Assembly: GCA_964612055.1 (NCBI GenBank)
Contig: CAZTBI010000004.1
Coordinates: 1-58,844 of the forward strand
Source: an uncultured Bdellovibrionales bacterium
GTDB lineage: Bacteria; Patescibacteriota; Minisyncoccia; Moranbacterales; UBA1568
Reading direction: 5' to 3'
Length of the DNA: 58,844 nt
The notes under the pieces: model-generated
Told to the model about the DNA's origin: nothing
Database searches by the model: none
The model's input: the letters and a program-made list of their open reading frames with translations, nothing else
In this document: in pieces, positions 45,430 to 53,195 of the stretch
Position numbering within the stretch: the first letter of the stretch is position 1
Layout: every line of letters starts with the position of its first letter
Made by a program: the position numbers and the translations under genes

Positions 45430-45458
45430 ATAGTAGCAGGAGCAATCACTGAAATCAA
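45430..45458 (-). promoter_or_regulatory. sigma70 promoter of the T-box/ileS transcript
   Basis: TTGATT-N17-TACTAT with TGn, placing the start just before stem I. Confidence 0.65.
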
Positions 45459-46159
45459 CCCCTGATACCAACTTTTTTCACGACAACGGAAAAGCGCTCC
45501 ACTAATCCCCGCATCTCTTCATTCGAAAAAGAATGGTACGTTGCGAAAAGCGAATCAAGGGTGTGGCCTGGCCGGAACGTCTGGAGATAGTAACGCTTAG
45601 CACCAGAAAGCATCTCTTCCATATCTTTTAGAACTTTTTCATTATGAATCTCCTTGATCAGCGTGGTTCGGAACTCATAGGGAATACCAGATGCTTTCAG
45701 TAGCCTGATACTCTCTTCGATATTCTCTGGCTTCACCGTGCCACCAACCAATTTCGGATATTCGGCAAGCGAGGTCTTTACATCCATGGCCACATAATCG
45801 ACCAACCCCTGATCGAGAAGTACTCGCAACATCTCCGGATGATTGCCGTTGGTATCGAGTTTTGTGAGAAACCCCTTTTCCTTGATTCTCCGCAGAAACT
45901 CCGGCAGGTCACGCCAAATGGTCGGCTCGCCCCCTGATACCACCACCCCTTCCAAAAGCCCGCGCCGCTTGTCGAGAAAATTGAAAAATGCTTGCTCCTC
46001 GATGAAGTCAGCCTGCAGTTCCTGGATCTTTGCCGGCAGCACGAACTCCGGATTGTGGCAAAAGCCGCAACGCATATTGCACCCAGGAGTGAACGCGATA
46101 CACGCTACCCTTCCTGGGTAGTCGAGCATCGTGAATCGTTGGATAGCTGACAGCTTCAT
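45455..46159 (-). CDS. nrdG: Anaerobic RNR activating radical SAM enzyme
   Basis: GCNMRCGFCHNP (CxxxCxxC), SGGEPT, KLDTNG; adjacent to nrdD. Confidence 0.93.
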   Translation of the reverse strand: MKLSAIQRFTMLDYPGRVACIAFTPGCNMRCGFCHNPEFVLPAKIQELQADFIEEQAFFNFLDKRRGLLEGVVVSGGEPTIWRDLPEFLRRIKEKGFLTKLDTNGNHPEMLRVLLDQGLVDYVAMDVKTSLAEYPKLVGGTVKPENIEESIRLLKASGIPYEFRTTLIKEIHNEKVLKDMEEMLSGAKRYYLQTFRPGHTLDSLFATYHSFSNEEMRGLVERFSVVVKKVGIRG

Positions 46160-46350
46160 GCCTGGCCGTACTGCTTGGTGAAGACGGTATTGTCAGCTAC
46201 ACACTCCTCGAAATGTTTGCGCGAGTAATGCTCAGCCTTCTTGCCGATATTGAAGTGGGAGACGGGGCGATGATAGCCCATAACCCGGGTCCACACTTCA
46301 CAGCGGGTGCGCTTCTCGTTTCGTTCTGCTTGTATTTCTGTCTGCGTCAT
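46156..46350 (-). CDS. Stand-alone glycyl-radical domain of class III RNR (64 aa)
   Basis: RCEVWTRVMGYHRPVSHFNIGK is the NrdD C-terminal radical loop. Confidence 0.88.
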   Translation of the reverse strand: MTQTEIQAERNEKRTRCEVWTRVMGYHRPVSHFNIGKKAEHYSRKHFEECVADNTVFTKQYGQA

Positions 46351-46386
46351 AGATGTAGGGTTATATTTGTTAACTTGGTTGAAAGA

Positions 46387-48501
46387 CTATTTCTCAGCCG
46401 CGGTACTGGCGTAGGTCTTGCGATAAGTCTCGTCGAAACGTTCCCCACTGAGTCCTAGCTCCGTATCACACTTGGGACAAAAGTCATACTCACCGGAAAG
46501 ATAACCGTGTTTCGGGCAGATGGAGAATGTCGGCGTGATGGTGATATATGGCAATCGGTAACGAGTGAGGATTTTTTTCACGAGATTGCGGCAGGCTTCA
46601 GGCGTCGAAATCTTCTCGGTCATGTAGCAATGAAGCACCGTTCCACCCGTATACTTGGTCTGAAGGTCATCCTGCAAGTCGAGCACTTCGAAGACATCGT
46701 CCGTATAGCCCACTGGTACCTGGGAAGAGTTGGTGTAGTATGGCGCATCCGCAGTCCCGGCCTGAAGGATCTTAGGGAAACGCTTCTTGTCTTCCTTGGC
46801 GAAGCGGTAGGTCGTCCCTTCAGCAGGTGTCGCTTCCAGGTTATAGAAGCTCTTGGTCTCTTCCTGGAAGGATTTGATCTTCTCCTGCATATGAACCAGT
46901 ACTTCCAGGGCAAAAGTATGTCCCCAATCGGTCGTGATATTCTCCTTGTCGTCGGTGAAATTCCGGATCGCCTCGTTCAGGCCGTTGATCCCGATGGTCG
47001 AGAAATGATTCTTCAGGTAGCCCAAGTAGCGCTTGGTGTACGGGAAGAGTCCCCGGTCGATCCATTCTTGAATCACTTTGCGTTTGATCTCCAGTGACGT
47101 CTTGGCAAGCTCCATCAAGTGGTCGATCTGGGCATAGAACTTTTCCTTGTCACCTTTGGTAAGATAACCGATGCGAGCCGCATTCAAGGTCACTACCCCG
47201 ATGGATCCCGTCATCTCGGCCGAACCAAAGAGCCCGCCACCGCGCTTGCGCAGTTCCCGCAGATCGAGCTGCAGCCGGCAGCACATGGAACGGACATCGC
47301 CCGGATTGAGACTGGAATTCACGAAATTCTGGAAATACGGCGTGCCGTACTTGGCCGTCATCTGAAACAGCGGCAGATTCTTCTCACTCTCCCAATCGAA
47401 GTCCTTGCCGATATTGTAGGTCGGGATAGGAAAGGTGAAGGCTCGTCCCCTGGCATCGCCCTGGCTCATCACCGCGATGAAGGCCTGGTTGACGACATCC
47501 ATCTCGTGTCCCAGCTCACCAAACGTATACGCGAATGGTTTTCCGCCGAGAAGCAACCGTTTTTCTTTCAGGTCTTCCGGACAGTCCCAGTCGAGCGTGA
47601 TATTGGTGAACGGCGTCTGCGTCCCCCAACGCGAAGGGATGTTCAAGTTGAAAACAAAGGACTGAAGGTTCTGATAAACGTAGGCGTATACCTCGTCCTC
47701 GATGTATTTCTCTTTCGCTTCGTCCGAGATGAAGATCATGCCGTGCCTCTCCATATTCTCACGGAGCTCCAATTCGTACTTCTTCACGAAAGGTGCCATG
47801 TAGGTATCGAAACTGGAAAATGCCTGAGCTCCGGCCCACTCGTTCTGGAGCGTCCCCAAGAAGTTCACCATCTGCGACACAGCTGATGAGAGGTGCTTCG
47901 GAGGGCCGGACTCCACCTTGTTGTCGACACCGTTGAAACCTTCTTCGAGAAGCACACGGAGGCTCCAGCCGGCGCAGTAACCCGAGAACATGTCGAGGTC
48001 GTGGATGTGATAGTCGCCGTTGCGATGCGCCTCCCCAACGCTCTTCGGATAGATATGCGACAACCAATAGTTGGCGATGACGGAGCCTGCTGTATTCAGA
48101 ATGAGTCCGCCGAGCGAGTAGCCCTGATTGGAATTAGCATTGACGCGCCAGTCTGCTCGATTGAGATAATCAGCCACCGTCTTTTCTACCTCGACCACCA
48201 CATTCTTATCTGCTCGAGCCTCCCGACGTTTCTCACGATAGAGAATATAGGCTTTGGCCATCTCGGCATAGTCATAGCGGATGAGCACATCCTCCACGAC
48301 ATCCTGGATCTGCTCGACGGTTGGAATCTGATCGCTATACATATCTTCAAGCTCTACTTCTACTTCTTTGACCAATGTCTCAGGAATCACCTGATCCAAA
48401 TACCCAACTGCCTGTGCGGCCTTGACAATAGCATTCTTGATTTTCCCCAAATCAAAATCAACAATGGCTCCATTTCTCTTCTGTACTTTGTAGAGCGGCA
48501 T
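46387..48501 (-). CDS. nrdD: Class III anaerobic ribonucleotide reductase large subunit with ATP-cone, lacking the glycyl-radical loop
   Basis: KVQKRNG ATP-cone, HIHDL, RSMCCRL, NLEATPAEG, C-terminal CPKHG...CPKCD. Confidence 0.93.
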   Translation of the reverse strand: MPLYKVQKRNGAIVDFDLGKIKNAIVKAAQAVGYLDQVIPETLVKEVEVELEDMYSDQIPTVEQIQDVVEDVLIRYDYAEMAKAYILYREKRREARADKNVVVEVEKTVADYLNRADWRVNANSNQGYSLGGLILNTAGSVIANYWLSHIYPKSVGEAHRNGDYHIHDLDMFSGYCAGWSLRVLLEEGFNGVDNKVESGPPKHLSSAVSQMVNFLGTLQNEWAGAQAFSSFDTYMAPFVKKYELELRENMERHGMIFISDEAKEKYIEDEVYAYVYQNLQSFVFNLNIPSRWGTQTPFTNITLDWDCPEDLKEKRLLLGGKPFAYTFGELGHEMDVVNQAFIAVMSQGDARGRAFTFPIPTYNIGKDFDWESEKNLPLFQMTAKYGTPYFQNFVNSSLNPGDVRSMCCRLQLDLRELRKRGGGLFGSAEMTGSIGVVTLNAARIGYLTKGDKEKFYAQIDHLMELAKTSLEIKRKVIQEWIDRGLFPYTKRYLGYLKNHFSTIGINGLNEAIRNFTDDKENITTDWGHTFALEVLVHMQEKIKSFQEETKSFYNLEATPAEGTTYRFAKEDKKRFPKILQAGTADAPYYTNSSQVPVGYTDDVFEVLDLQDDLQTKYTGGTVLHCYMTEKISTPEACRNLVKKILTRYRLPYITITPTFSICPKHGYLSGEYDFCPKCDTELGLSGERFDETYRKTYASTAAEK

Positions 48502-48538: not shown

Positions 48539-49144
48539 CTAGCAACCAAACTGGCCTTCCCCACAGGGAGCGGGAAGTTCTTTGGCTATCGGGATGCCAG
48601 GGGCACTTCCACTTATTACATATTCTTCTGGCTTGGTAATCGCCCACTCATGCTCGTGATTCCATGTCTCCCACCCGTACCGCCATTCGTTCCACCCAAT
48701 ACCCAGGTGCTTCACATAGATATCTTGTTCGGCAAGCATGAGGCCAATTTTTCTCCCTGTCATACAGGCCGTGCTGTAACAGTAGACAATAATATCTTTC
48801 TCTTTCGGAAGTGCCTGAAACTGACCAATGATACGCTCTTCCTCATCATAAGCGCTTGTATCTGGATCGCTATATGCTGGAATATTCACCGCTCCGACAA
48901 TATGCTCTTTCTCATACTCCACCGCACTCCGCAAGTCCACAAGTATAAAGCTCTTGTCCTGCTTGTCCATAAGTTTGCGTAAACCATGGGGACTGACTTT
49001 AACAGCATTTTCTACCCGGTAGTATTCGGCTATAGCATCTTCTTTCACTGGAGTCTTGAAACGCTCGGAAAGGAGTACTATATTTCCTCCCAGTAAAATA
49101 CCAAACAACACCGATACCCCCACTAATTTGATCTGCTCATTCAT
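48539..49144 (-). CDS. Membrane-anchored rhodanese-domain protein
   Basis: N-terminal TM; DLRS..EY...HI.GAVNIP, IVYCYSTAC, LGIGWNEW. Start trimmed to MNEQIK. Confidence 0.85.
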   Translation of the reverse strand: MNEQIKLVGVSVLFGILLGGNIVLLSERFKTPVKEDAIAEYYRVENAVKVSPHGLRKLMDKQDKSFILVDLRSAVEYEKEHIVGAVNIPAYSDPDTSAYDEEERIIGQFQALPKEKDIIVYCYSTACMTGRKIGLMLAEQDIYVKHLGIGWNEWRYGWETWNHEHEWAITKPEEYVISGSAPGIPIAKELPAPCGEGQFGC

Positions 49145-49188
49145 AACAATATTTCTAAGGATTACGAGAAATACTCTACATACTTTAT

Positions 49189-49216
49189 AAACACTAAAAA
49201 CAAAAAAAGGTGTCAA
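49189..49216 (-). promoter_or_regulatory. Bipartite motif TTGACACCTTTT-N9-AGTGTTT upstream of rhodanese-nrd unit
   Basis: Same motif recurs upstream of nirK at 51638-51666. Confidence 0.55.
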
Positions 49217-49226
49217 GACGACACCT
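49201..49226 (-). terminator. Terminator after PAS-ECF gene (overlaps the motif)
   Basis: AGGTGTC-GTCTT-GACACCT followed by a T run. Confidence 0.7.
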
Positions 49227-49253: not shown

Positions 49254-50336
49254 TTAATTCCAAGCTTGTTTGATTTTTTTGCGCGTTCGACTCAAAATCA
49301 ATTTTACAGCATTTTCTGTCTTCCCTACCTGCTTGGCAATCTCTTTCACTTTGAGATCCTGCTCGTACCTCAGGAGCATAATCTTTCTTTCCATTTCAGA
49401 AAGAGGGGCCAAAAGATACCCTATGTTCCCACCATCTAACCCTGCCTGTTCGTCGAAGAGAGAGAGTGCTCGTTCGTCAGACAGAGGGAGGGTATCACAC
49501 TTTTTTTTGCGGTAGTAATTCACTAAAACACTATGACTCACTCGGAGAAGATAGGTATAGTAAGAAGCGTTCGTAATCCGAAATGAAGGGAGATAGCGGA
49601 AAGCCCTGGCAAATACTTCCTGATTCAGATCCTCAGCCAAAGCCTGATCCCCTCCAAGACGCCGTAAAAAATACTTCTGAAGGGTAGAGTAATATTTTTC
49701 ATAGAGCCGAGAGAAGTGTTCTGGATTTTTTTGAGCAGCCTGAATCAAAGGTGCATCCTCAAAACGTCGGAAAAGTACTTGCTCAGTAGGAGCAATCAAT
49801 TCTTCATAGAAGAACGTGACAGGATTAATGATAGTCTCGCTAAGAGACGAGGTACCCGGTACTAGTACGCCGTCTTTCTTTTTTCGTAGAGCATCAAAAA
49901 CCCAAACAAGCGTTTGACTGTCTGTATGAAATTTCTTTGCCTGTGATAAGAAAGATCGAACAAACGACTGAGACTCTTTTTCTGTCACAAACTCTGGATG
50001 AAAGGCAGCAAAATAACGAGTCGTTCCTGTCTCATCCTTGAGAGGGGCAATGCAAAGTAAATCTTCTTGGAATTGTCCGTTTTTTTTCACGTTCTGTACC
50101 ATGCCCACAAAAGGCCTCCCTTCTGTATCAATAGTTTTCCACAATAACTGATAAAATTCCTTGTTCATGTGACCACCCCAAAGTTCCCCTGGCTTCTTCC
50201 CAACTATCTCGGCCAAAGAAAATCCCGTACGTCGCTCAAAGGCACCGCTCACATACACCACTCGCGATGAGATATCGGTGATTAAAAGCCCGCCCGGTAA
50301 TATATCAAGGACTTGTTTGAATGAAGGGGAAGTCAT
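49254..50336 (-). CDS. PAS domain fused to an ECF sigma factor
   Basis: N-terminal ITD..YVS.AF...TGFS..EIVGKKP...FYQ.LW.TI (PAS); C-terminal AEDLNQEVF.RAF, YL.R.....LVNYYRK (region 2), LS..ER.I..LRY......EIA...G.....VK..LSR (region 4). Confidence 0.9.
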   Translation of the reverse strand: MTSPSFKQVLDILPGGLLITDISSRVVYVSGAFERRTGFSLAEIVGKKPGELWGGHMNKEFYQLLWKTIDTEGRPFVGMVQNVKKNGQFQEDLLCIAPLKDETGTTRYFAAFHPEFVTEKESQSFVRSFLSQAKKFHTDSQTLVWVFDALRKKKDGVLVPGTSSLSETIINPVTFFYEELIAPTEQVLFRRFEDAPLIQAAQKNPEHFSRLYEKYYSTLQKYFLRRLGGDQALAEDLNQEVFARAFRYLPSFRITNASYYTYLLRVSHSVLVNYYRKKKCDTLPLSDERALSLFDEQAGLDGGNIGYLLAPLSEMERKIMLLRYEQDLKVKEIAKQVGKTENAVKLILSRTRKKIKQAWN

Positions 50337-50382
50337 AGTGAAAACTTTCTCCCTATCATATCACAATCACCAAAATCACAGA

Positions 50383-51603
50383 CTAGTGACCGCTGTGTAC
50401 GCTAGGATTTACTGTTCCAGAAAAAATGTCTGGTCTTTCGGCTCCAGAAACGGTGAGCACCCCCCAAGCACCCCTATCTGCCCGAGTCAGAGCATGATCT
50501 ACCAAAATATAGTCTCCGGGTACCTCTGGAACAAACTCCATGATGCCAGCTCCGCCCGGCGGGATAAGGGTGGTTTGGATATTGTGATGCAGATCACTCC
50601 CAATACCACCTTCCGGATAAACAGTATCAAAAATTTCTCCAATAAGATGGAAAGATGATACTAAATTTACTCCACCATTTCCAACAAAGAAGCGTACCGT
50701 TTCTCCTGTTTCCACCTTCATGTTCCGAAGCAAAGAATGGATCTTGCCGTTAAAGAAAATATACTGTGGATGACTATCAAGCATAGCTTGACCATCAAAG
50801 ACTTGCATTCCCTTCTTACCAAGATTTCCTTTGGTATACATCTCCCCTTGCATGATATAAAACTCTTTGTCCACTTTTGAGAGACCCTCCTTTGGTTCCA
50901 CGAGAATCATTCCGTACATTCCATGAGCCATATGAGTAGCTACATTGGTCATGGCGCAGTGATAGACATACAGCCCTGGGTTGAGTGCTTGAAAAGAAAA
51001 AGATTTGCTCTCGCCAGGAAGCACTGTGGTTACCCCTGCTCCCCCGCCCGGCCCAGTCACCGCATGAAAATCTACATTATGAGGATGAACACTTGTTTCG
51101 TGGTTCTTCACGGTCACCTCTACTTGATCACCCTCCCGCACCCGGACAAAGGGTCCAGGGACTTTCCCATTAAATGTCCAGGCATTCATAAAAATCCCGG
51201 GGGCAATTTCCGTAATAACTTCTTTAGTCTCAAGATTGACCCGTACCACTTCTGCGTGATCACGTTCTAGAGGTGCCGGGATATCATTTGGATCATATGA
51301 AATATTACCTACTCGTTCAAAATCATTAAAGTTTTTGAAAAATCGTACCATATGGTCTAGATGAAATGAGGGAGGAATGCCAGGTCCAAAGGTAGTCATA
51401 AACAGAGGGTACTCCATTGTATTAGGAAGTACCTGAGCAGAAAAATAGAAGATGCCCATTCCTACTAAGAAAAGAGTCGTAAAGAACATCCTTGTTTTAG
51501 TAATAAAAAAAGACCGAAAAAATCCAACAACACCTCCTAGCGCCAAAATGATACCAACAATCTGCAAGACTAAAACTCGAAAAAACTGGAGAAAAGAACC
51601 CAT
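50383..51603 (-). CDS. nirK: Copper-containing nitrite reductase with two N-terminal TM helices
   Basis: FNGKVPGP, HNVDFH, YHCA...ATHMAHGMYG, SSFHLIGEIFD, VDHAL: type 1 and type 2 Cu ligands plus catalytic D/H present. Confidence 0.93.
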   Translation of the reverse strand: MGSFLQFFRVLVLQIVGIILALGGVVGFFRSFFITKTRMFFTTLFLVGMGIFYFSAQVLPNTMEYPLFMTTFGPGIPPSFHLDHMVRFFKNFNDFERVGNISYDPNDIPAPLERDHAEVVRVNLETKEVITEIAPGIFMNAWTFNGKVPGPFVRVREGDQVEVTVKNHETSVHPHNVDFHAVTGPGGGAGVTTVLPGESKSFSFQALNPGLYVYHCAMTNVATHMAHGMYGMILVEPKEGLSKVDKEFYIMQGEMYTKGNLGKKGMQVFDGQAMLDSHPQYIFFNGKIHSLLRNMKVETGETVRFFVGNGGVNLVSSFHLIGEIFDTVYPEGGIGSDLHHNIQTTLIPPGGAGIMEFVPEVPGDYILVDHALTRADRGAWGVLTVSGAERPDIFSGTVNPSVHSGH

Positions 51604-51637
51604 ATTTAAAAGGTTAAGAATAAATCTCTATAAAGAG

Positions 51638-51666
51638 AAACACTTTTCTTACCCAAAAGGTGTCAA
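51638..51666 (-). promoter_or_regulatory. Bipartite motif TTGACACCTTTT-N10-AGTGTTT upstream of nirK-PAS/ECF unit
   Basis: 19 nt shared with 49189-49216. Confidence 0.55.
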
Positions 51667-51708: not shown

Positions 51709-53106
51709 CTAGCTGCGCCGATGTAATCGCTCGTACCGGCCGAGGTGCGTCCAGTTGCTGACGCATTTCTTGATATAGCCGATGGTCTCGTACTTGAGCA
51801 CCGCTCCCTTGCTCTTGATCCAAGCGATGAACTCCTGCCACGGGAAGGAACCAAAAGCCAGGTGCTTGATCTTCTTGAGATCACCATACTCCACCACTAG
51901 CCGAGCGAGTGCCTTGGCTTGTGACGGTCCGCCATTATAGGCGGCGGCCGGAAACAACAGACCCATCTGGTGATCATCCATGAAGGCTTCCCGTACCCAA
52001 TCAGGTACTCCCCGGGAAGACAGTTCGTAATCGGTCAGGACCGCCGCCGCTTTGACGCTGTTACGAAAACCGCGCGTCCCTCGTTTGAAGTCCGGATCAA
52101 GCTCTGCCAGCGGATAGGCGAGACGCATGGCCTCATAGGTACCCGGGCCGTATTTCCCGTTCTTCTGCCTGACCCGGTTGTTGGTGAACTGGTACGCTCC
52201 GCAAGCTGCTGCGCCCGAGCAGATGTAGCGATAGGCATCAAGACCGTTTATCACGAACTCGGTAAGTACTGCATCTACCACCTGCTCATCTCTCTCGTAG
52301 AGACGTTTCGGCAAAAGCCTCTCACATCCCGGCTCACGCTCTTGGAGCAGACAAGGATCTGTCTGTTCCGTGACGAGGAGATTGAGAAGAGCTCCTGATG
52401 AAACCACATCAGCCACCAACTTGCCCGGATAAGCATCCGAAGGCACTTGCTTCTCCCGAAGCTCGCCCAAGGCCTCTTCGATGGCACGCAAAGCGATGTT
52501 CTGCCCTTGTAGAGCAAACCCTTCATTAGCCAGGTACGGCGGCGTGGCCAGATAGACCACTGCCTCCGCCTCCTGATTCATAATCCTGACGTCCTTCGAA
52601 CGGAACACTGGCGGTACAGAAAGATGTTTCGCCGCATAGACCCGCAGCTCTCGGCCATCCATCGTCACCTCAAAGACCATCTTATTGAACGTCTGACCCT
52701 TGATGCGGATCACCTGGTACGGTGGATCATGCTTGGTACGGATGTTCGGCTGGAACACATCATCACCGACAAGCGGCATGTCGAGCACGATCTTATGGAA
52801 ACCGTCCGTTTCCGGGTCGTACACAACGAGTCCGAATTCACGACGGATACTCCTTTTGCCGATCATTGGCTTTCCGTTCTTGCCGAGATACCGCTCGACA
52901 TTCTCGAACACCTGAAGCGGAATTCTTTCCGCCAAAGACCGGGCTTCACGAAGCTTCCGGCACACGTCGACACGCTGTACGAACGCCTCACACGAAGGCA
53001 GTTTTGTGGCTCGTTCCTGCTCTATCCTCCGTTGGTAATCGATATTCCCCGCCAGCACCTGAGTGGCACTGAGGCAGAGAGCCGCAAGCGTTACAAAGAA
53101 CTTCAT
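51709..53106 (-). CDS. Secreted lytic transglycosylase/lysozyme-like protein
   Basis: CAAGGAG SD, signal peptide MKFFVTLAALCLSATQVLA, LVTEQ (candidate catalytic E), SGAAACGAYQF, AAYNGG, ETIGYIKK. Confidence 0.7.
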   Translation of the reverse strand: MKFFVTLAALCLSATQVLAGNIDYQRRIEQERATKLPSCEAFVQRVDVCRKLREARSLAERIPLQVFENVERYLGKNGKPMIGKRSIRREFGLVVYDPETDGFHKIVLDMPLVGDDVFQPNIRTKHDPPYQVIRIKGQTFNKMVFEVTMDGRELRVYAAKHLSVPPVFRSKDVRIMNQEAEAVVYLATPPYLANEGFALQGQNIALRAIEEALGELREKQVPSDAYPGKLVADVVSSGALLNLLVTEQTDPCLLQEREPGCERLLPKRLYERDEQVVDAVLTEFVINGLDAYRYICSGAAACGAYQFTNNRVRQKNGKYGPGTYEAMRLAYPLAELDPDFKRGTRGFRNSVKAAAVLTDYELSSRGVPDWVREAFMDDHQMGLLFPAAAYNGGPSQAKALARLVVEYGDLKKIKHLAFGSFPWQEFIAWIKSKGAVLKYETIGYIKKCVSNWTHLGRYERLHRRS

Positions 53107-53166
53107 GGACGTCTCCTTGATGTTGTCCAGTGGATGCCGCAAACATACCACGCTCCGGAGAAAATG

Positions 53167-53195
53167 AAAAGAAGTCATTTGTTATGACTTCTTTT
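53167..53195 (-). terminator. Terminator hairpin
   Basis: AAAAGAAGTCAT-N5-ATGACTTCTTTT. Confidence 0.75.

Follow-up and report, generated by a model that had tools for sequence, protein, structure and literature searches.

Normally, sigma factors of the extracytoplasmic function (ECF) type are under the control of separate anti-sigma factors, and an ECF sigma factor that carries a sensor domain on its own polypeptide raises the question of what it senses and which genes it serves. The question is posed here by an uninterrupted open reading frame (ORF) of 360 amino acids (aa) on the minus strand, at positions 49254 to 50336 (stop codon at 49254 to 49256), of a 58,844-nucleotide stretch of contig CAZTBI010000004.1 (assembly GCA_964612055.1), which was analyzed as a whole and is referred to as the window. 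The window belongs to a Patescibacteria genome of 942 kb in 7 contigs that is 99.8% complete. The protein combines Pfam domains PAS, Sigma70_r2, and Sigma70_r4_2 and was aligned with 118 full-length homologues. It is read here, with a probability of roughly 60%, as a one-component sigma factor that is dedicated to anaerobic genes and gated by oxygen or redox state. Judged from sequence, it most likely switches on the operon for the class III (anaerobic) ribonucleotide reductase (RNR), and in this genome also the gene for a nitrite reductase, from a conserved promoter.

The initial annotation, which was made from the letters of the sequence, had described a PAS domain fused to the N terminus of an ECF sigma factor with regions 2 and 4, and matches to Pfam, NCBIfam, and solved structures confirm this fusion. 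Pfam places PAS_9/PAS at residues 7 to 112 (E values of 6e-9 and 1.5e-8), Sigma70_r2 at residues 211 to 279 (44.5 bits against a cutoff of 24; E = 1.4e-11), and Sigma70_r4_2 at residues 307 to 355 (41.3 bits against a cutoff of 25.7; E = 1.2e-10). The protein passes the NCBIfam model of the ECF superfamily, TIGR02937, with 70.5 bits (cutoff, 42.9), and the solved sigma structure that best matches its core is 6dxo, an ECF-subfamily sigma factor (E = 4.8e-12) from what we take to be the sigma-BldN/RsbN complex. The ECF reclassification of Casas-Pastor et al. (2021) defines ECFs by the lack of region 3 and by no more than 50 aa between regions 2 and 4; here 27 residues separate the two Pfam matches, and the Pfam scan returned no Sigma70_r3 hit.

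An AlphaFold2 model built from the 118 homologues (mean predicted local distance difference test [pLDDT] score, 88.5; predicted TM score [pTM], 0.70) gives a PAS fold for residues 1 to 115 (positions 49992 to 50336) and five predicted helices across residues 119 to 203. Residues 116 to 191 (positions 49764 to 49991) form a structured linker with helices at residues 119 to 133, 140 to 151, 163 to 167, and 172 to 187 and with pLDDT values of about 72 to 95. The linker of about 75 aa that the initial annotation had noted is therefore present, but in the model it is a folded helical module rather than a loose tether. Four of its residues (F125, F129, P183, and R191) are invariant or nearly so in the alignment. 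A Pfam scan of the linker alone at E ≤ 10 produced no match, and a fused anti-sigma domain in this segment is thus without support. Sigma region 2 with its N-terminal helix follows at residues 192 to 282 (positions 49491 to 49763; Sigma70_r2, TIGR02937, and 6dxo), and region 4 occupies residues 304 to 360 (positions 49257 to 49427; Sigma70_r4_2) after a disordered stretch at residues 283 to 303 (pLDDT < 50). All of these features lie on the minus strand.

The fusion is a conserved family of the Patescibacteria (Candidate Phyla Radiation) and not a one-off. A word-seeded search returned 236 homologues at E ≤ 1e-3, and almost all of the 120 that were listed are of similar length, contain PAS and sigma domains, and share 36 to 58% identity with the window protein. 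The PAS domain and the linker are kept in 118 of the 118 aligned members; such full-length conservation at 35 to 57% identity to the window protein places the PAS-linker-sigma architecture far beyond chance. A profile search over 1.84 billion representatives clustered at 50% identity found at least about 115 full-length PAS-plus-sigma clusters (330 to 385 aa) among the best 150 representatives, which also include PAS-less proteins of 181 to 256 aa. In contigs drawn from one genome per species, 162 stretches encode a relative, and 6 of 401 evenly sampled Patescibacteria genomes contain the fusion at full length. Where the source gives a name, the listed homologues are assigned to Moranbacteria, Magasanikbacteria, and Gracilibacteria, and the named relatives are from Moraniibacteriota, Magasanikbacteria, Uhrbacteria, Gracilibacteria, Peribacteria, Nomurabacteria, and Paceibacter, all of which are Patescibacteria lineages. 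Many locus records (L002, L004 to L006, L008 to L010, and others) are titled "uncultured Bdellovibrionales" or "Gammaproteobacteria" (third-party annotation assemblies) despite Patescibacteria-type content, and these titles are probably mislabeled. One locus (L056) encodes two PAS-sigma paralogues of 379 and 383 aa on the same strand with one gene between them and has no nrdD nearby.

The genes that accompany the fusion were clustered over 79 loci, comprising the window and 78 fetched loci. The class III RNR gene nrdD lies downstream on the same strand in 65 of them and is the immediately following gene in 50, and the activase gene nrdG lies downstream in 54. The association extends to whole genomes: among the 401 sampled Patescibacteria, NrdD is encoded in 5 of the 6 genomes with the fusion versus 109 of the 395 without a full-length copy (Fisher P = 0.008), and two sampled genomes of the window's genus have neither the sigma fusion nor NrdD. 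The window genome also encodes a second RNR of class I/II and consequently has two reductases to choose between. The upstream neighbor of the sigma gene in the window is nirK, encoding a copper nitrite reductase (positions 50383 to 51603, minus strand; TIGR02376, 332.6 bits against a cutoff of 296.3). Including the window, nirK is found in 6 of the 79 loci; in the other five it follows nrdG, with a gap of 9 to 16 nucleotides (nt) in three, where it belongs to the same operon, and of 135 to 187 nt in two. The link to nitrite reductase recurs, in two distinct arrangements, but nirK was rejected as a conserved partner in the regulon given its 6 loci against the 65 of nrdD.

No anti-sigma gene is adjacent to the sigma gene, as the initial annotation had stated; its neighbors in the window are nirK upstream and a gene for a membrane-anchored rhodanese downstream. 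Nor was a conserved anti-sigma partner seen across the loci, where nrdD is the downstream neighbor and the upstream genes vary. A gene for a DUF5667 anti-sigma-like membrane protein is present in only seven loci (L060, L066, L070, L071, L073, L074, and L075), several of which are labeled Uhrbacteria. In most of the seven it directly precedes the PAS-sigma gene, in L060 it lies one gene further upstream, and in L060, L066, L070, and L073 it is itself preceded by a separate small ECF gene (about 160 to 177 aa), so that two sigma systems are adjacent.

The spacer between the sigma gene and nrdD contains a two-block element, TGACACCTTTT-N-YGTTTA, that has the form of an ECF promoter, with an "AC" -35 block, a T tract after it, and a (C/T)GT -10 block; the consensus for sigma-W of Bacillus subtilis is TGAAAC-N16-CGTA. 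A loose pattern recovers the element 1 to 92 nt past the sigma stop codon in 63 of the 79 loci, with a spacing from GAMAC to YGTTT of exactly 16 nt in 56 of the 63. Extra copies precede nrdD genes that are not adjacent to the sigma gene and, in a few loci (L037, L058, and L064), a small glycyl-radical ORF. In the window, the putative promoter of the rhodanese-nrdD-nrdG genes is at positions 49188 to 49215 on the minus strand and consists of a -35 block TGACACC (49215 to 49209), a T run, and a -10 block GTGTTTA (49194 to 49188).

Few copies of this element are present in the window genome. The strict pattern TGAMACCTTN{12,14}YGTTT has three matches in 942 kb, and its reversed control has none. 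Apart from the nrdD site, one match (51665 to 51638) lies 61 nt ahead of nirK; the putative promoter there spans positions 51637 to 51665 on the minus strand (-35 block TGACACC, 51665 to 51659; -10 block GTGTTTC, 51643 to 51637), with a spacer one base longer. The third copy, on another contig (C1:103917-103944, minus strand; locus L081, 3576-4436), has the same longer spacer and precedes a gene for a 268-aa multipass membrane protein without a Pfam match and then one for a HAD hydrolase, a pair that probably adds to the regulon. A position weight matrix consisting of two half-matrices trained without the window ranked the nrdD site first (score, 35.7) and the nirK site second (26.5), against maxima of 12.7 to 19.1 in shuffled genomes; a hit at C1:245781 was set aside, having no downstream ORF on its strand.

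The occurrence of the element follows that of the sigma factor. Four of the five other sampled genomes with the fusion (G389, G386, G223, and G095, the last with the variant CGACACC) have it in the sigma-nrdD spacer or a short distance before nrdD, and it was found near nrdD in none of the 36 sampled genomes that have NrdD without the fusion, in which pattern hits elsewhere were few and at about the control rate. This co-occurrence across genomes is the main support for regarding the motif as the probable promoter of the PAS-ECF sigma factor. The redox role proposed in the initial annotation had been put forward without a regulon or a promoter, and it is the regulon of nrdDG and nirK, together with this promoter, that makes a role in the response to oxygen or redox state credible. 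The nrdDG neighborhood, the conserved promoter motif, its three sites in the genome and its specificity, and the promoter type of the sigma gene itself are newly found here.

The sigma gene appears to have a promoter of another type. An extended -10 element, TGATATGAT, at positions 50355 to 50363 on the minus strand, in the 46-nt gap between nirK and the sigma gene, is the predicted core of a housekeeping-type promoter. Of 78 loci, 23 have the corresponding pattern TGnTAYVRT in the 120 nt that precede the sigma start, mostly at 17 to 41 nt, against none of 78 control stretches. An autoregulatory ECF-type promoter was rejected, as the ECF-type motif is absent upstream of the sigma gene in all of the other 78 loci and the extended -10 element is found instead. 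As a rule, therefore, the sigma factor is probably not autoregulated, unlike most ECFs. Its gene ends in a predicted intrinsic terminator (positions 49196 to 49226, minus strand; AGGTGTC-GTC-TTGACACCT plus a T run), the 3' arm of which is the -35 block of the next promoter. Since a housekeeping-type promoter and a terminator delimit the sigma gene, we infer that control is exerted at the level of the protein. A terminator scan found none between nirK and the sigma gene (50336 to 50383), and read-through from the nirK promoter may therefore give positive feedback in the window genome. The description of a self-contained sigma factor in the initial annotation is thus well supported by the conserved fusion, the lack of a conserved anti-sigma partner, the housekeeping-type promoter where one is recognizable, and the ECF-type promoter immediately downstream before nrdDG.

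What the protein senses depends on its PAS domain, which was originally likened to the PAS-A domain of NifL. The residue pattern cited for that likeness is present in the sequence, and the resemblance holds both in sequence and in predicted fold. The NCBIfam model for NifL aligns residues 5 to 124 with its positions 5 to 123, which cover the PAS1 region (E = 5e-16), and the model for the phosphodiesterase DibA matches a similar stretch. Among solved structures, the N terminus matches 2gj3, the flavin adenine dinucleotide (FAD)-containing PAS1 domain of NifL (E = 9.4e-12), then 3ewk (MmoS; E = 6.6e-11), and then LOV domains. A Foldseek search with the modeled PAS domain likewise placed 2gj3 at or near the top (TM score of 0.84, root mean square deviation of 1.8 Å, and 29 to 30% identity), with LOV and other flavin-binding domains ranking next. 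Xing et al. (2023) assign NifL, MmoS, Aer, and AerC to one flavin clade in which a Trp of the F-alpha helix is the key FAD residue. The contacts described for Aer by Maschmann et al. (2022) include N85, which binds the flavin O4 and N3 atoms; W70, which stacks on the adenine; R57, which binds phosphate; H53, which lies over the isoalloxazine ring and is equivalent to the LOV Cys; and R115, near N5.

Pocket positions were transferred through the alignment with NifL (2gj3) and counted over the 118 sequences. The F-alpha Trp (W66; NifL W87 and Aer W70), which aligns with the Trp of "...YQALW" in NifL, is kept in 117, and the flavin N3/O4 Asn (N82; Aer N85 and MmoS N164), which aligns with "VNRRKD" of NifL, is kept in all 118. 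Position 59, corresponding to the Arg of NifL "TPRLV" (the R80 position), is Lys or Arg in 102 sequences. At the N5-proximal position 113 on the I-beta strand, occupied by R115 in Aer, Gln in LOV domains, and His in NifL, there are 83 His, 17 Gln, 7 Asn, and 5 Arg residues. Overall, binding of a flavin by the PAS domain is about an even bet or slightly better.

Several observations weigh against a flavin-gated sigma factor with these targets. The position that is reactive or takes part in signaling in characterized flavin-binding PAS domains (the LOV Cys, H53 of Aer, H132 of MmoS, and, by alignment, a Glu of NifL that is presumably E70) is Pro in all 118 sequences (P49); the E-alpha segment reads GKKPGELWGGxM here and GKNESILSNGTT in NifL. 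The position of the phosphate-binding Arg of Aer (R57) is likewise an invariant Trp (W53), and the pocket has a further family-specific residue, M57, in 118 of 118. The cofactor or its chemistry may therefore differ from those of the characterized domains. RibF-type FAD synthetase and flavokinase domains were both undetected in the 99.8%-complete genome, which does encode two FAD-dependent Pyr_redox_2 flavoproteins, meaning that flavins are used and must be acquired somehow. On the side of the targets, the genome contains five other sigma-70-family genes, the motif is assigned to this sigma factor by co-occurrence, and 109 of the 114 sampled genomes with NrdD do without the fusion. The flavin redox gating of the initial annotation is thus plausible: the markers at W66, N82, and position 113 are kept, and P49, W53, and the missing RibF count against it.

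A different ligand would accommodate part of this evidence. The same sigma factor could serve the same regulon with a flavin-free PAS domain that binds another small molecule or a partner protein through the pocket lined by P49, W53, and M57, the signal then being a metabolite. The invariant residues at the reactive and phosphate-binding positions and the undetected RibF would fit this explanation, as would the finding of Xing et al. (2023) that the FAD Trp is kept in only 53% of the NifL-type PAS cluster, which means that membership of the clade is no guarantee of FAD. The same PAS subtype also serves histidine kinases of the window genome. Against it, the Trp, the Asn, and the I-beta His/Gln/Arg markers are all kept, the top structural neighbors are all flavin-binding PAS domains, and the functions in the regulon are related to oxygen; a flavin-free sensor is accordingly considered unlikely, though it deserves to be taken seriously.

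The PAS subtype itself (P-x-LWG-x-x-M; TPALWGxQM...FW...NKRKDG) is seen in two other proteins of the window genome, a PAS-PAS-HisKA-HATPase kinase (L086, 1372-3078, plus strand) and, at its C terminus, a 472-aa membrane sensor (L087, 1520-2938, minus strand). The subtype also recurs in many Patescibacteria sensor proteins, and the PAS domain together with the first linker helices is found again in Patescibacteria histidine kinases. Since the subtype is shared with a kinase and a membrane sensor, its ligand is probably a general signal in these bacteria.

By analogy with other ECFs that have extensions, residues 1 to 191 would control the activity of the sigma factor. The helical linker is a candidate signal-transmitting or autoinhibitory module, and in the model the pTM of 0.70 and the high-confidence helices suggest a compact and possibly autoinhibited arrangement like that of ECF41-type extensions. 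Alternatively, the N-terminal module could have no gating role and contribute to folding, dimerization, or stability, with a constitutively active sigma factor and with nrdDG controlled by sigma abundance or by another factor. This would agree with the PAS-less representatives of 181 to 256 aa and with the sampled genome G098, in which a 191-aa orthologue of the sigma core without a PAS domain (L082; G098:C5, 3694-4269, minus strand) lies directly upstream of nrdD in the same place and with a near-identical promoter motif, TGACACTTTT-N-GTGTTAAA. It is an improbable explanation, as the PAS pocket is conserved more strongly than most of the protein, with eight invariant positions in the PAS domain at 35 to 57% identity, and the housekeeping-type promoter and terminator leave no obvious control at the level of transcription. 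G098 could represent a lineage that lost the sensor. The 890 nt or so upstream of its sigma gene contain no ORF that reaches 90 aa.

Other sensory chemistries find less to recommend them. No Cys column reaches 30% in residues 1 to 200 of the 118 sequences, and the PAS domain has no invariant His, the most frequent being H113 (83 of 118; 70%) and H93 (42 of 118; 36%); this argues against LOV photochemistry, an Fe-S cluster, and classical heme ligation. A LOV photoreceptor was rejected outright, since the adduct-forming Cys of the LOV motif GxNCRFLQ corresponds to P49. A heme-based sensor of oxygen or nitric oxide (NO), as in FixL, DOS, or Aer2, would have a natural signal in NO as the product of NirK, with nirK in the regulon here and in five other loci, and could in principle use the invariant M57 as an axial ligand, but it is very improbable given that no invariant His or Cys is available in the PAS domain as an axial ligand, that neither the matches to solved structures nor the 50 fold matches listed, which are flavin-binding PAS/LOV entries, include a recognizable heme-PAS entry, and that nirK is present in so few loci while nrdDG is near-universal.

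Just as doubtful is the proposal that TGACACC...YGTTTA is a terminator combined with a site for another regulator or for one of the other sigma factors of the genome: its left half can form a hairpin with an upstream GGTGTC (GGTGYY) arm in 37 of the 63 loci, the -35 block being the descending arm, and scores as an intrinsic terminator, but some loci, such as L052, L062, and L076, lack the arm and keep both blocks at the fixed spacing, the nirK and contig C1 copies do not follow a sigma gene, and the motif is absent near nrdD in the 36 sampled fusion-negative genomes with NrdD. As loci without the hairpin arm keep both blocks, the promoter blocks are the conserved unit, and a mere terminator of the sigma gene was rejected on the same grounds. 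A binding site for NrdR was also rejected. The NrdR box is a 16-bp palindrome, ACAC-N8-GTGT, which the blocks do not fit, and the motif precedes nirK as well.

The reading preferred here, that of a one-component sigma factor gated by oxygen or redox state, can be set out as a sequence of steps. The sigma factor would be made constitutively from its housekeeping-type extended -10 promoter, on a transcript that would end at the terminator behind the gene. The PAS domain and the helical transmitter would report oxygen or the cellular redox state. In the oxidized state, this sensor-transmitter unit would keep the two sigma regions (2 and 4) compact and inactive; with the PAS cofactor reduced, or oxygen absent, the active sigma factor would direct RNA polymerase to promoters of the TGACACC/YGTTTA type. 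In nearly all members of the family, such a promoter would follow the sigma gene directly and serve nrdD, the glycyl-radical piece, and nrdG; in the window genome, the targets would be rhodanese-nrdD-nrdG, nirK, and probably the membrane protein and HAD hydrolase pair on the other contig.

Glycyl-radical RNRs are oxygen labile, and nirK serves nitrite respiration. That the reduced or anoxic state would be the active one is suggested by these targets, which are useful only without oxygen, by the presence of the second RNR, and by the analogy with NifL, for which the literature describes an inhibitory conformation with oxidized FAD. We infer the flavin cofactor, the sign of the response, and the mechanism of autoinhibition from this combination of genomic context and homology. 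The most specific form of the proposal, in which the sigma factor is itself the oxygen or redox sensor through a flavin-PAS domain and the whole path from signal to promoter is contained in a single 360-aa protein, is tentative and falls a little short of even odds; the protein would then be an anaerobic switch of genome-reduced Patescibacteria that acts on the class III RNR and, in some lineages, on nitrite reductase, and that stands functionally in for FNR. In Escherichia coli and its relatives, FNR-type control is the oxygen-responsive switch for nrdDG and for denitrification genes. The likeness is one of function only, as FNR is an activator of the Crp/Fnr type with an Fe-S cluster and an entirely different mechanism.

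Comparison with known systems places the protein among the ECFs with regulatory extensions. Like other one-component ECFs, it has regions 2 and 4 as its core, lacks a conserved anti-sigma partner, and carries a conserved extra domain on the same polypeptide that presumably acts by intramolecular contact; unlike them, it has its extension at the N terminus, of about 190 aa and with a recognizable PAS sensor, and as a rule it appears not to be autoregulated. According to Casas-Pastor et al. (2021), ECFs less often have N-terminal than C-terminal extensions, the N-terminal ones are generally the shorter, and only those of BldN, SigC, and SigR' are named there; none of the N-terminal extensions described contains a PAS domain. 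The extensions listed in a 2022 review of noncanonical ECFs are of the SnoaL, TPR, Cys-rich, and anti-sigma-like kinds, with PAS not among them. Full-text searches of the ECF literature found no description of a PAS-ECF fusion. In the literature searched, then, the fusion does not define a characterized ECF group, a finding that the initial annotation had named as one that would overturn its proposal.

NifL PAS1 of Azotobacter vinelandii (2gj3), with MmoS and Aer, provides the best match in sequence and fold, including the kept Trp and Asn and the largely kept Lys/Arg at the R80 position and I-beta His. Here, however, the PAS domain has a sigma factor as its output, within one chain, whereas NifL is a kinase-like antiactivator, and its E70 is replaced by Pro. 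Membership in the NifL family (TIGR02938, PAS1-PAS2-H-GHKL) was rejected at 58.3 bits against a cutoff of 242.45, the match covering model positions 5 to 123 only. The closest named sigma core is that of BldN (TIGR02952/ECF121; E = 1.5e-24), a classic ECF with an N-terminal extension, but at 86.8 bits the protein falls below the cutoff of 206.45 for that family. BldN also differs in that its extension is a propeptide removed by proteolysis and in having an anti-sigma factor, whereas the extension here is a folded sensor domain. On these sequence comparisons, the protein is classed as an ECF with a regulatory extension built from a flavin-clade PAS sensor and not as a member of the NifL, LOV, or BldN families.

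The remaining genes of the predicted operon lie on the minus strand of the window. The first of them encodes the membrane-anchored rhodanese (Pfam Rhodanese; positions 48539 to 49144; 201 aa from the ATG at 49144). The 225-aa ORF listed for it begins at a TTG (49216) with MTPFFVF, which is the promoter read as codons, and the true start is the ATG. A rhodanese gene separates the sigma gene from nrdD in only the window and L016 among the 79 loci. The nrdD gene (46387 to 48501; PF13597, E = 8.8e-181) lacks the glycyl-radical tail, and a 64-aa ORF with the glycyl-radical motif RVMGY (46156 to 46350) matches positions 532 to 562 of PF13597 and corresponds to the C terminus of NrdD, cut off by an in-frame TAG; read through this single TAG, the profile is matched from 2 to 562. 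Within 46156 to 46389, the TAG ends nrdD just past the zinc ribbon, and the glycyl-radical ORF begins 12 codons on. About half of the NrdD matches in the 401 Patescibacteria genomes end near profile position 530 of 562 or require read-through of a stop codon, and a split (or recoded) class III RNR seems to be widespread in Patescibacteria. The nrdG-like radical-SAM activase gene (45455 to 46159) is identified by a CxxxCxxC motif and by its position and belongs to a neighbor cluster (cluster 2) conserved in 54 loci.

The NirK protein (50383 to 51603) has about 60 hydrophobic N-terminal residues with two predicted helices and no obvious signal peptide, and the same is true of its relatives encoded after nrdG. 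Upstream of nirK, a gene at 51709 to 53178 on the minus strand encodes a 489-aa protein that neither Pfam nor NCBIfam matches and whose hydrophobic N terminus may be a signal peptide; relatives of it are encoded near the sigma gene in six loci (cluster 20).

The few known one-component ECFs have C-terminal SnoaL, TPR, or Cys-rich extensions, and their signals are mostly unknown. In the family described here, a short oxygen-related regulon and a near-invariant promoter make the chain from signal to output unusually readable. If the proposal is true, the family would be the first among ECF classes to be gated through a cofactor-binding sensor domain at the N terminus, and it would provide a compact, probably portable pair of an oxygen-responsive sigma factor and its promoter, a candidate for an orthogonal oxygen or redox switch. 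The sigma family may also serve as a practical marker of facultative oxygen exposure in Patescibacteria. For these bacteria, it would show how genomes of about 1 Mb with very few regulators pick between two RNRs and time the reduction of nitrite.

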